A stretch of DNA of 6,418 bases from a virus. The translations under genes were made by a program, and so were the position numbers. Every line of letters starts with the position of its first letter. Position 1 is the first letter of the stretch. Shown here one piece after another: positions 959 through 5,536 of this stretch. The stretch is from IMG/VR virus record IMGVR_UViG_3300013371_000001. One strand, written 5' to 3'. Under the pieces are notes generated by a model. It was not told the DNA's origin, ran no database searches, and was given only the letters and a program-made list of their open reading frames with translations.

Positions 959-1294
959 ATGAATAATTCACAACATCCAATTATGACAGTTACAGGCATC
1001 CGTAAGGCTGCTGGAGACTTTACAGACGATAAAGGCAAAACAATCGAGTTCTCAAACACGGTTGTAACTGTATTACAGAATTACTCTGAGCGTGAACTTG
1101 AACAAGGTGCAATCGGATTCAAATCTACCGATTATAAAATCAAAGGCGCTCAGTTCTTTAATGATTACATGCACCAGAAGCTACCAGCCGAGGCTGCAAT
1201 GATCTTTGATTGGGATTTCACAGGTAAACAGCCAAAGGCTGTATTAGTGGCGTTAGATTTCAATGCGAAGAAACAGGAAGTTAAATCGCTATGA
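959..1294 (+). CDS. Putative ssDNA-binding protein (gene V position), 111 aa
   Basis: The ATG lies just after the gII stop, with AGGTGAG at 950..956. It occupies the syntenic position of Ff gene V and has a small soluble mixed-charge sequence. I recognised no direct similarity to Ff gVp, so the call is positional. Confidence 0.5.
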   Translation: MNNSQHPIMTVTGIRKAAGDFTDDKGKTIEFSNTVVTVLQNYSERELEQGAIGFKSTDYKIKGAQFFNDYMHQKLPAEAAMIFDWDFTGKQPKAVLVALDFNAKKQEVKSL

Positions 1295-1446
1295 TCAATA
1301 TAAATCATTTTAAATCAGTTGTTTGCGCTGACTGTGGCGTTAAGTTTAAACCAGCATCACGATATTTAGAGTTGGGTGCTCACAAACCACATTGCACGCA
1401 AATGGGTGCTGAAATGGTAAAAAAGCCAACACAAACAAAGGCATAA
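1291..1446 (+). CDS. Small zinc-finger-like protein A, 51 aa (MININHFKSVVCADCGVKFKPASRYLELGAHKPHCTQMGAEMVKKPTQTKA)
   Basis: The ATG overlaps the upstream stop (ATGA at 1291..1294), suggesting translational coupling. It has a C-x2-C-x3-F-x5-Y-x5-H-x3-C pattern and is a paralogue of the next small ORF. It is not in the supplied ORF track because it is too short. Confidence 0.55.
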   Translation: MININHFKSVVCADCGVKFKPASRYLELGAHKPHCTQMGAEMVKKPTQTKA

Positions 1447-1458
1447 ATATACCATTTC

Positions 1459-1472
1459 GTATAATGTATAAT
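1459..1472 (+). promoter_or_regulatory. Tandem GTATAAT GTATAAT, two candidate -10 boxes upstream of zinc-finger ORF B
   Basis: There are exact TATAAT hexamers at 1460..1465 and 1467..1472 in the 62-bp gap between the two small ORFs. I found no convincing -35 element. Confidence 0.3.
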
Positions 1473-1508
1473 ATGTAAATAAATCAATAACTTAGGTGTA
1501 TTTTTACT

Positions 1509-1598
1509 ATGACAGAATATGTTTATACATGCAAGAAGTGCGGTAAAAAGTTTACAAAACACTCTAGTTATTGCATCCATTTTTACAAGTGTAAATAA
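1509..1598 (+). CDS. Small zinc-finger-like protein B, 29 aa (MTEYVYTCKKCGKKFTKHSSYCIHFYKCK)
   Basis: The ATG is preceded by AGGTG (1494..1498). The spacing Y-x-C-x2-C-x3-F-x5-Y-x2-H-x3-C equals the classical C2H2 finger spacing with Cys as the last ligand. It shares CxxCGxKFxxxSxY with ORF A. Confidence 0.5.
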   Translation: MTEYVYTCKKCGKKFTKHSSYCIHFYKCK

Positions 1599-1667
1599 CA
1601 GATACCACTGGCTTTTGGGGGCGTGGTTTTAAAGCGCAAGTCAGTGGTTCTATTGGGGATTAAGAGT

Positions 1668-1880
1668 ATGCAGATTGATGATTGCACAGCCACAACGGTA
1701 ATCAATGGGGTCAATTACTGCGTACTCGTCATACATCAACAAAGCTGGCTAGACGAACTCAACAATTTATCCGTTGTCCAAGTTGGTCTCTTACTGTCTA
1801 GCACAGCGTTGATTTGGTACGTTGCTTGGGGCATACGTGCCACTTTAGACCTACTTGGGCACACTTCTAACGAGGAATAA
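1668..1880 (+). CDS. 70-aa single-pass membrane protein, possible minor coat or coat-paralogue protein
   Basis: ATG at 1668 (GGGGA at 1655..1659) is preferred over the GTG at 1623. It has a hydrophobic segment VVQVGLLLSSTALIWYVAWGI. Its stop lies 3 nt before the coat gene ATG. Its C-terminal YVAWGIR matches YVGWGIR of the coat protein at both protein and DNA level. Confidence 0.5.
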   Translation: MQIDDCTATTVINGVNYCVLVIHQQSWLDELNNLSVVQVGLLLSSTALIWYVAWGIRATLDLLGHTSNEE

Positions 1881-1883
1881 CTC

Positions 1884-2147
1884 ATGGACAATAAAGAACA
1901 AACTCCAAACACTAACCAAGAAACTAAAAAGGTAATCACTGCTGCTAAACGTGCCGTGATGACTGCGGGTGTAGTAATTGCTACAACTGCAACTGCCTTT
2001 GCTGCTGATGGGGATACAACTATTGACTTAACTACTGGCTTGGCTGGTGTTGCGATTGTTGCGGGTCTTCTTTCAGCGGGTAGCTTGAAAGCTGTACCGA
2101 CATACGTTGGTTGGGGAATCCGCAAAGCATTGTCAATGCTTCGTTAA
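1884..2147 (+). CDS. gVIII: Major coat protein precursor (pVIII-like), 87 aa; predicted mature form is 47 aa
   Basis: GAGGA at 1872..1876 lies 7 nt before the ATG. There is a signal-like segment VMTAGVVIATTATAFA with an AxA cleavage motif. The predicted mature peptide is ADGDTTIDLTTGLAGVAIVAGLLSAGSLKAVPTYVGWGIRKALSMLR, with the acidic N-terminus, hydrophobic core and basic C-terminus expected of an inovirus coat protein. A terminator follows it, as in Ff. Confidence 0.85.
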   Translation: MDNKEQTPNTNQETKKVITAAKRAVMTAGVVIATTATAFAADGDTTIDLTTGLAGVAIVAGLLSAGSLKAVPTYVGWGIRKALSMLR

Positions 2148-5343: not shown

Positions 5344-5357
5344 CGACAAGGGGGTAT

Positions 5358-5501
5358 ATGATGATTATTTGGCAATTTATTAAAGATAATTTCGGCCTGT
5401 TTTTGTATTTTATTCTTGCGGTAGTTGTCTGTATACAATTTGCTCTAAAAACTCTTCGCGAGATTAAATATGAACAAGATGATGATCAATACATCCCCTA
5501 A
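5358..5501 (+). CDS. 47-aa small membrane protein (MMIIWQFIKDNFGLFLYFILAVVVCIQFALKTLREIKYEQDDDQYIP)
   Basis: AAGGGGG at 5348..5354 precedes tandem ATGs at 5358 and 5361; the TTG at 5313 in the ORF track is unlikely. It has one TM helix and an acidic tail. It sits where Ff carries gene IV. Confidence 0.55.
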   Translation: MMIIWQFIKDNFGLFLYFILAVVVCIQFALKTLREIKYEQDDDQYIP

Positions 5502-5536
5502 ATTGCCTAATATTTATACAATAAATTAATGCCTGA

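Follow-up and report, generated by a model that had tools for sequence, protein, structure and literature searches.

What two very small open reading frames (ORFs) encode on either side of a phage attachment site, in the slot where Ff phages encode the hydrophobic proteins pVII and pIX, is the question raised by IMG/VR virus record IMGVR_UViG_3300013371_000001, a 6,418-nucleotide stretch of viral DNA that is referred to here, at its full length, as the window. Bases 1-107 recur at 6312-6418, a terminal redundancy indicating that the window represents an inovirus genome that is circular, complete and 6311 bp long, and Acinetobacter baumannii chromosomes hold prophages that are 97-99% identical to it over most of their length. 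The two ORFs, designated ORF A (51 amino acids (aa)) and ORF B (29 aa), are very probably real genes, each specifying a single Cys2-His-Cys (C2HC) finger with a predicted zinc-stabilised ββα fold. Judged by its sequence, ORF B is a minimal 29-residue free-standing C2HC finger, whereas in ORF A the loop between the ligands is longer and the finger is followed by a basic, disordered tail.

Sequence features of ORF A and ORF B

An initial annotation, made from the letters of the sequence alone, had placed ORF A at positions 1291-1446 and ORF B at 1509-1598, and both the coordinates and the translations (MININHFKSVVCADCGVKFKPASRYLELGAHKPHCTQMGAEMVKKPTQTKA for ORF A and MTEYVYTCKKCGKKFTKHSSYCIHFYKCK for ORF B) were reproduced here. 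The core CxxCGxKFxxxSxY followed by H-x3-C is common to both peptides. ORF B exhibits the spacing Y-x-C-x2-C-x3-F-x5-Y-x2-H-x3-C, as in a classical finger with Cys as the fourth ligand, while the distance between the second Cys and the His is 15 residues in ORF A compared with 12 in ORF B. The proposed translational coupling of ORF A was likewise evident, its ATG (1291-1293) overlapping the upstream TGA (1292-1294) in an ATGA.

The expectation that two such motifs would hardly arise by chance was borne out by 500 dinucleotide-preserving shuffles: stop-to-stop segments with the pattern C..C-x11-16-H-x3-C number two in the window versus a shuffle mean of 0.038, and at least two were present in 0.2% of the shuffles. 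Both peptides are basic and soluble (grand average of hydropathy -0.31 and -0.70; pI 9.5 and 9.4), and equivalence to the ~32-aa hydrophobic membrane peptides pVII and pIX had been doubted from the outset and was rejected on these grounds; the hydrophobic role is filled by a separate gene for a ~60-70-aa membrane protein (1668-1880) and, in relatives, by ~30-aa 'VWYFF' peptides. Searches of Pfam, PHROGs and NCBIfam returned no match above threshold for either peptide, consistent with the view that single-finger peptides are not annotated inovirus components. A paper on Acinetobacter Af phages never uses the word 'zinc' (PMC11209303).

Occurrence and conservation of the ORF B family

Relatives were sampled through Rep (4 genomic and 79 IMG/VR loci), through the closest homologue of ORF A (8 chromosomal places) and, for additional loci, with a degenerate DNA pattern; individual loci are cited by their L numbers. 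The survey of the slot occupied by ORF B was anchored on the p7-like, coat and pIII genes, and not on the finger motif itself. A micro-ORF of the form CxxC-x9-16-H-x3-4-[C/H] was present directly upstream of the anchors in 42 slots and absent from 7, and where present it is always located upstream of the p7-like gene. Two of the seven empty slots carry a finger slightly further upstream, that of L042 is frameshifted, that of L065 is mis-anchored, and those of L021, L044 and L052 truly lack one; the slot listing of L065 also shows no finger despite the mis-anchoring, which brings the relatives without a finger to four. In L042 (at about 6060-6150), the finger ORF is broken by a frameshift in a T7 run, representing either a sequencing error or decay. 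Among related inoviruses of Acinetobacter/Moraxellaceae, ~45 of 50 have a filled finger slot where the morphogenesis operon begins, and, given that some intact relatives lack a finger, the finger genes are considered accessory rather than core.

The slot ORFs form two families, B1 (which includes ORF B) and B2. Members of B1 measure 29-33 aa and conform to Y-x-C-x2-C-G-x2-F-x8-H-x3-C; the first set contributed 18 distinct sequences, and the pattern scan supplied others. None of the 18 distinct members deviates at Y, C, C, G, H or C; the Tyr and Gly are invariant and the Phe near-invariant in B1 even though they lie outside the search pattern. The mean proportion of synonymous differences (pS) in B1 is 0.78 versus a mean non-synonymous proportion (pN) of 0.34, with a median dN/dS (ratio of non-synonymous to synonymous substitution rates) of 0.25. 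Members of B2 (20 distinct sequences of 34-40 aa; dN/dS 0.13) conform to E-C-P-x-C-x11-H-x3-C. Profile-profile comparison with hhalign (93.9%, E 1.6e-7), in which all four ligands are aligned, indicates that B1 and B2 are homologous. As C22 of ORF B is not conserved, its predicted ligands are C8, C11, H24 and C28. Ligands are invariant across ~40 distinct sequences, and most of the peptides are basic, with a median pI of 9.3 and a net charge of +4 (+6 for ORF B).

The sense frame alone is consistently open, with L042 as the exception, whereas the other frames are not conserved. An antisense ORF at 1380-1580, which had been entertained as the real gene, is open in just 5 of 18 and 4 of 21 homologues and spans the site cut by integration, and it was therefore rejected. 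These open frames and invariant ligands support the proposal that ORF A and ORF B are genuine coding micro-ORFs for Cys2-His-Cys zinc-finger-like peptides under purifying selection. Their very small size, the long spacing (10 nt) between ORF B and its Shine-Dalgarno-like sequence and the near absence of ORF B-type ORFs from protein databases could also be accommodated if the frames were open by chance over DNA whose conservation had a different cause (attP flank, origin or packaging signal), or if the real gene were antisense. Conservation at the protein level with saturated synonymous change, the invariance of the ligands, the lack of conservation of the antisense frame and the shuffle test all argue against such a non-coding origin, which is regarded as extremely improbable.

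With a 44-aa extended ORF at its head, a profile of the family yielded one match among 5.8 billion proteins, and the scarcity of 29-33-aa finger ORFs in protein databases is attributed to the length limits of gene callers. The degenerate pattern scan also detected the C2HC pattern as an N- or C-terminal module of larger tailed-phage proteins; the stand-alone 29-34-aa form was found, among the matches listed, on inovirus-sized contigs only. In addition, two more small zinc-finger families, both absent from the window, were observed in related phages between the Zot and repressor genes. One, of ~75 aa (L004:12179-12403, L015:2534-2773 and L046:6087-6317), ends in C-x2-C-x12-H-x3-[HC], includes some members with 'HLDKCL' and matches phrog_10717 (unknown function); the other, of 60-102 aa (L002:5827-6135, L003:128-328 and L015:2210-2425), carries C-x2-C-x12-H-x4-H.

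Predicted fold of the finger peptides

When compared with the PDB, the B1 profile matched Krüppel-type C2H2 fingers over profile positions 6-26, with E-values of 2.3e-6 for the single-finger chain 2epc and 5e-18 for the consensus finger 1mey, and of 5e-42 for ZNF568 when summed over its fingers; ORF B is therefore interpreted as a free-standing C2HC finger. For the ORF A profile, no PDB match was obtained. The Pfam family zf-C2H2 (PF00096) was the commonest or top family for 15 of 19 B1 members, with scores below its gathering threshold of 25.2 bits (19.2 for ORF B and 24.9 for the best relative).

The spacing C8-x2-C11-x12-H24-x3-C28 of ORF B agrees with the C-x2-4-C-x12-H-x3-5-(H) of classical C2H2 fingers and is common to all 19 aligned relatives, whereas ORF A, with x15, departs from it. 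The fourth ligand is Cys, and not His, in every B1, B2 and ORF A member, which identifies them as C2HC variants. The hydrophobic core expected of such a finger is present in B1: the aromatic residue at -2 from the first Cys is Y6 (invariant or above 90%), the Phe at +4 from the second Cys is F15 (above 90%), and the hydrophobic residue at -3 from the His is Y, L or F at position 21. A model of ORF A predicted with AlphaFold2 (AF2) from a shallow alignment showed a ββα core with a predicted local distance difference test (pLDDT) score of 70-80, the overall model reaching 64.

Two other finger classes were compared. Ros/MucR fingers (PF05443; C-x2-C-x9-H-x3-4-H in a ~58-aa domain) differ in spacing, gave no Pfam match and are longer than the peptides studied here. 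The UBZ4-type (ubiquitin-binding zinc finger) spacing C-x2-C-x11-H-x3-C is shared by B2 (x11) and not by ORF B (x12), and the corresponding matches were non-significant (zf_UBZ E 0.026; WRNIP1 E 0.5).

Distribution of ORF A

ORF A combines a C-x2-C-x15-H-x3-C finger with a disordered basic tail rich in Lys, Thr and Gln. An exhaustive HMMER search of 1.84 billion representatives retrieved P0002 and P0005 as its only homologues, plus one unrelated repeat protein, and a word-index search retrieved three clusters, all from Acinetobacter where the source names an organism. In the homologues P0001-3 and P0005, residues C12, C15, H31 and C35 are kept, whereas H34 is not. Values of pN/pS lie between 0 and 0.34, the synonymous sites of the distant pair being close to saturated, and every ORF A copy is ATGA-coupled to the 111-aa gene-V-position ORF. 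ORF A is rare and restricted to Acinetobacter, whereas the ORF B family is near-universal in the clade.

In chromosomal prophages, ORF A is always followed by attR or attP. It represents the terminal cistron of a repressor-Rep-gene V module and persists at the right end of prophages as well as in RS1-like remnants. In A. baumannii and related chromosomes (L008, L013, L036 and L093/L094), modules of the form 'repressor-Rep-gene V(-ORF A)' were observed, either stand-alone or repeated; they end at dif, are devoid of structural genes and are reminiscent of RS1, the satellite of CTXphi. Such modules may stem from Xer recombination between an internal attP and a flanking dif.

Gene order around the finger ORFs

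The features between Rep and the coat gene are as follows.

6039-6311 plus 1-951, across the circle junction: Rep, 407 aa, with Pfam Phage_CRI and G2P_X_C
959..1294, + strand: gene-V-position ORF, 111 aa, presumed single-stranded DNA (ssDNA)-binding protein from its position and size
1291..1446, + strand: ORF A, 51 aa, last gene of the replication module
1454..1481, + strand: attP, a dif-like XerC/XerD site
1482..1498, + strand: conserved linker AATCAATAACTTAGGTG, left edge of the exchangeable cassette
1509..1598, + strand: ORF B, 29 aa, first gene of the morphogenesis module
1605..1647, + strand: conserved stem-loop, followed by a U-rich stretch and then the ribosome-binding site of the next gene
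1668..1880, + strand: gene for a p7/Psh-like small membrane protein, 70 aa, its role inferred from position
1884..2147, + strand: major coat protein gene, 87 aa, with Pfam Inovirus_capsid below threshold (E 0.006)

The gene-V-position ORF matches phrog_4994 (unknown function; E 7e-20), and a Pfam search with it gave no match. The 70-aa p7-like protein contains two N-terminal Cys residues and a C-terminal hydrophobic segment, with weak PHROG matches only. Assignment of the coat gene is supported by its position ahead of a pIII-like ORF, which is followed in turn by a 92-aa ORF in the pVI position (with a DUF2523-bearing homologue in related prophages), a Zot/pI-position ORF (whose homologue carries Pfam Zot) and a divergent 68-aa repressor-like gene.

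A strong terminator-like hairpin 3' of the coat gene (2157-2210; AAAAAGCTGGG...CCCAGCTTTTTT) was recognised by eye only; its loop exceeds 8 nt, and it is absent from the automatic terminator scan for that reason. Tiny hydrophobic ORFs (20-39 aa, often with 'LVWYFF') were observed near the p7 and coat genes, in the window at 2228-2290. ORFs of the 'VWYFF' type are located 3' of the finger ORFs in L018, L019, L051, L054, L124 and L200, and in L021 and L044 a hydrophobic ORF stands where the finger would be. These ORFs are candidates for pVII/pIX- or PfsE-like peptides and, like the fingers, fall under annotation thresholds. A hydrophobic peptide as the alternative occupant of the finger slot was nonetheless rejected, as many relatives possess both a finger and a 'VWYFF' gene before p7.

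Attachment site and exchangeable cassette

ORF A and ORF B had been described as a tandem pair. They are indeed adjacent, yet they do not form a single tandem unit: the 62-nt gap between them holds the XerCD/dif-like attP, composed of ATTTCGTATAA (XerC arm), TGTATA (centre) and ATATGTAAATA (degenerate XerD arm), and integration consequently separates the two genes. At the right prophage end in A. baumannii chromosomes, ORF A is followed by ATTTCGYATAATGTATATTATGTTAAAT and then host DNA, which constitutes attR; this hybrid carries the host XerD arm TTATGTTAAAT, and the attP form is kept between tandem copies.

The attP is the sole stretch of the window that was matched in the phage database (Acinetobacter phage M02, 92%). 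An unannotated 37-aa finger ORF, a B2 allele, was observed at 161-274 of the M02 record (L001, OQ693633), right after the dif-like site. That record resembles a cut-out prophage, with a duplicated end (1-138 like 5817-5954) and host DNA after attR.

A second candidate attachment structure was noted at 5537-5636, where a long imperfect hairpin (-29.5 kcal/mol as ssDNA, z = -6.4) consists of a pair of dif-like sites in inverted orientation, with 12 nt as the central region, and thus resembles the folded attP of CTXphi. In chromosomal arrays, the left junction is located at window position 5533-5539 or 5622, and the phage therefore appears to possess two kinds of Xer attachment site.

The linker downstream of attP is identical upstream of both finger alleles and includes a Shine-Dalgarno-like AGGTG (1494-1498), which stands 10 nt from the ATG of ORF B and 5 nt from that of the 37-aa allele. 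The L006/L009 prophages have the same backbone as the window, save for ~180 nt around 5351-5532 and a discrete cassette, bounded on the left by TTAGGTG, just past attP, and on the right by the p7-like gene's ribosome-binding site. This cassette contains B1 plus the hairpin in the window and B2 in the L006/L009 prophages; a B1 cassette visibly similar as DNA was also found in L004, whose Rep is 43% identical.

Since ORF A and ORF B directly flank attP, and since the finger ORF starts ~30 nt past the dif-like site, via the conserved linker, in ~70% of relatives, the fingers could be accessory factors of Xer recombination that influence how active XerC/XerD are, or in which direction they act, where the XerD arm is degenerate, in the manner of XafT (Xer activation factor), which has a DUF3653 helix-turn-helix domain. 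A degenerate XerD arm is the situation in which TLCphi needs XafT (PMC9226527), and the attP of the window has such an arm; moreover, a library scan found no DUF3653 protein among the window proteins. However, the fingers lack similarity to XafT, and finger and dif-like site each occur without the other: L002, L024-27, L067-68 and L073-75 have a finger and no dif-like site in the slot, whereas L021, L044 and L065 have a dif-like site and no finger. On this basis, finger and attP are not considered to be strictly linked, and a role in Xer recombination is judged quite improbable.

A conserved stem-loop downstream of ORF B

Following the ORF B stop codon, a stem-loop was identified at 1605-1647 (CCACTGGCTT ... 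AAGTCAGTGG, with an inner GCG/CGC helix), with a folding energy as DNA of -10.8 kcal/mol (z = -3.7). It is separated by 7-10 nt from the ribosome-binding site (GGGGA, 1655-1659) that lies downstream of it and serves the next gene. Fingers of ORF B's subfamily are without exception followed by such a stem-loop. RNAalifold analysis of 16 distinct cassettes yielded 13 pairs, 7 of which show compensatory double changes. Among the fetched loci, all 28 true occurrences of the loop motif lie directly 3' of a finger ORF with the B1 pattern, and every distinct cassette with the stem-loop encodes a finger of ORF B's own subfamily. The terminator scan revealed no canonical terminator after ORF B, and Rfam contained nothing that matched in the window.

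The stem-loop lies on the packaged (+) strand, the finger peptide is basic, and the finger invariably adjoins the p7-like gene upstream of the coat gene. These observations would be compatible with a role in virion assembly, in which the finger recognises a packaging signal on the ssDNA, hands it to the p7-like protein and replaces one of the two Ff tip proteins. Against this stand the intact relatives without a finger, the swapping of alleles without co-variation of the p7 or coat genes, the absence of the stem-loop from most cassettes, and the soluble nature of a peptide devoid of a membrane anchor, and such a role is considered very unlikely.

Possible functions of the finger peptides

Tentatively, the fingers may act as small basic nucleic-acid-binding regulators. 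Many small phage zinc-finger proteins, such as Com and Ogr/Delta, regulate gene expression, and this reading is favoured on account of these regulators, the basic nature of the peptides, the precedent of AFV1p06, which among characterised proteins is the closest analogue (see below), and the co-inherited, covarying element beside ORF B. Under the proposed mechanism, ORF B would most likely bind structured nucleic acid, for which the stem-loop is the best candidate, and would thereby adjust how far the morphogenesis genes are read through or translated, much as Com does in phage Mu. The ratio of ORF A product to ssDNA-binding protein would be fixed, and ORF A may act on phage DNA or on lysogeny control, at a position like that of rstC.

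Several observations weigh against a regulatory role of this kind. The stem-loop is absent from B2 and from other B1 subfamilies, and hairpin binding can therefore not be a family-wide mechanism; the stem-loop could also be a mere attenuator or terminator unrelated to the finger protein, and a promoter scan found no sigma-70 promoter upstream of ORF B. A single finger of 29 aa is normally incapable of sequence-specific binding to duplex DNA. Charge is not conserved, ranging from 0 to +6 (net) in B1 and from -1 to +4 in B2. The single-sequence AF2 model of ORF B is of low confidence and comprises a hairpin only (pLDDT 67), and Foldseek returned no significant match (none with E <1), the model of ORF A giving non-significant zinc-knuckle matches only. 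Finally, homology between ORF A and B1 is weak, with an hhalign probability of 50% over 18 columns around CxxCGxxF; their common ancestry is at most plausible.

The variable charge also fits an alternative function, in which the C2HC finger serves as an interaction module, similar to UBZ4/Rad18, of protein-binding accessory factors directed at a conserved host or phage protein. Possible partners include the pilus/secretion machinery (in superinfection exclusion), a defence protein or, for ORF A, the phage repressor (in RstC-like antirepression). Unrelated backbones have exchanged the cassette, and a single backbone can contain either of two highly divergent alleles; this independence from the backbone implies that the partner would not be backbone-specific. 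Furthermore, the fingers are dispensable in the four relatives without one, the B2 spacing C-P-x-C-x11-H-x3-C is the UBZ4 pattern (with the very weak WRNIP1 match given above), ORF A occupies the rstC position of RS1-like modules, and inoviruses encode 30-aa host-modulating microproteins in this region, such as PfsE (PMC8764522). Conversely, the UBZ similarity is non-significant, most members of the finger family are basic, and PfsE is a membrane peptide, for which the separate 'VWYFF' peptide of relatives is the better analogue here. Protein binding as the main function is accordingly viewed as possible but somewhat doubtful.

A more specific form of the regulatory reading, in which ORF B and its cognate stem-loop, placed right behind the Xer attP, would together constitute a self-contained protein-nucleic acid cassette that switches the morphogenesis operon or couples it to the integration state, is unlikely, and so is an alternative in which the attP-flanking fingers would be a new class of Xer modulators distinct from XafT.

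Significance

Zinc fingers and zinc-finger microproteins are known as such; a free-standing classical-type C2HC finger at the junction of attP and the morphogenesis genes of an inovirus is undescribed in the libraries and literature searched. The finger ORFs constitute a conserved, largely unannotated gene class in the inoviruses of A. baumannii, a phage group of clinical relevance, with members of 29-33 aa at or below the limits of gene callers and a 29-codon family that is mostly missed by gene finders. Free-standing fingers with a eukaryote-like classical sequence are rare outside eukaryotes and archaeal viruses. The location at a Xer site, the mobile cassette and the covarying RNA/DNA hairpin make this system a good candidate for a switch in lysogeny, phage production or host interaction, and the phages that carry the fingers form tandem arrays at dif. 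If ORF B and its stem-loop did form the self-contained cassette considered above, a bacterial virus would be using a 29-residue classical zinc finger as a riboregulator or as a binder of ssDNA hairpins. Its small size puts the peptide within reach of chemical synthesis and makes it experimentally tractable, and the system would gain much in interest were the finger-plus-hairpin cassette or the link to Xer to be demonstrated.

Comparison with known systems

In its last position among the small genes that follow the repressor, Rep and ssDNA-binding module, near a Xer site, ORF A resembles RstC of the CTXphi satellite RS1. The likeness is positional only, and ORF A is also kept in the stand-alone RS1-like remnants; RstC is not known to be a zinc protein. 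Pseudomonas phage Pf4 presumably carries PfsE between its ssDNA-binding and coat genes. PfsE (PA0721) comprises 30 residues and is, like the fingers, an accessory microprotein of an inovirus (PMC8764522). Unlike them, it is a PilC-binding membrane peptide that has a YAWGW motif and contains no Cys/His ligands.

Among zinc fingers, the UBZ4/Rad18-type modules of WRNIP1 and RAD18 are C2HC fingers with the pattern C-(P)-x-C-x11-H-x3-C and a ββα arrangement, which B2 and the 75-aa 'HLDKCL' family resemble, but they represent eukaryotic ubiquitin-binding modules. ORF B shares with classical C2H2 fingers (PF00096) the exact spacing and the core (Y)-x-C-x2-C-G-K-x-F-x5-(Y/L/F)-x2-H-x3; it differs from them in that the finger is the whole 29-aa protein, single and without a linker or flanking domain, and derives from a bacterial virus. 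AFV1p06 of the archaeal filamentous virus AFV1 (PDB 2lvh) is a single-finger protein shown to bind zinc and DNA (PMC3541406). Like ORF B, it is a small viral protein with one classical-type finger and a fourth ligand other than His; unlike ORF B, it belongs to an archaeal lipothrixvirus, has Glu as its fourth ligand and bears N- and C-terminal extensions, and a comparison of AFV1p06 with the fingers of the window produced no significant sequence or structure match (Foldseek E 5.7).

Com of phage Mu is a 62-aa CCCC finger that acts as a translational activator on a stem-loop before mom. Neither ORF A nor ORF B showed a Pfam match to the Com family or sequence similarity to the Com zinc ribbon. 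The likeness of the two systems lies in their arrangement, in which a small phage zinc-finger gene is located upstream of a structured element that precedes the ribosome-binding site of the next gene.

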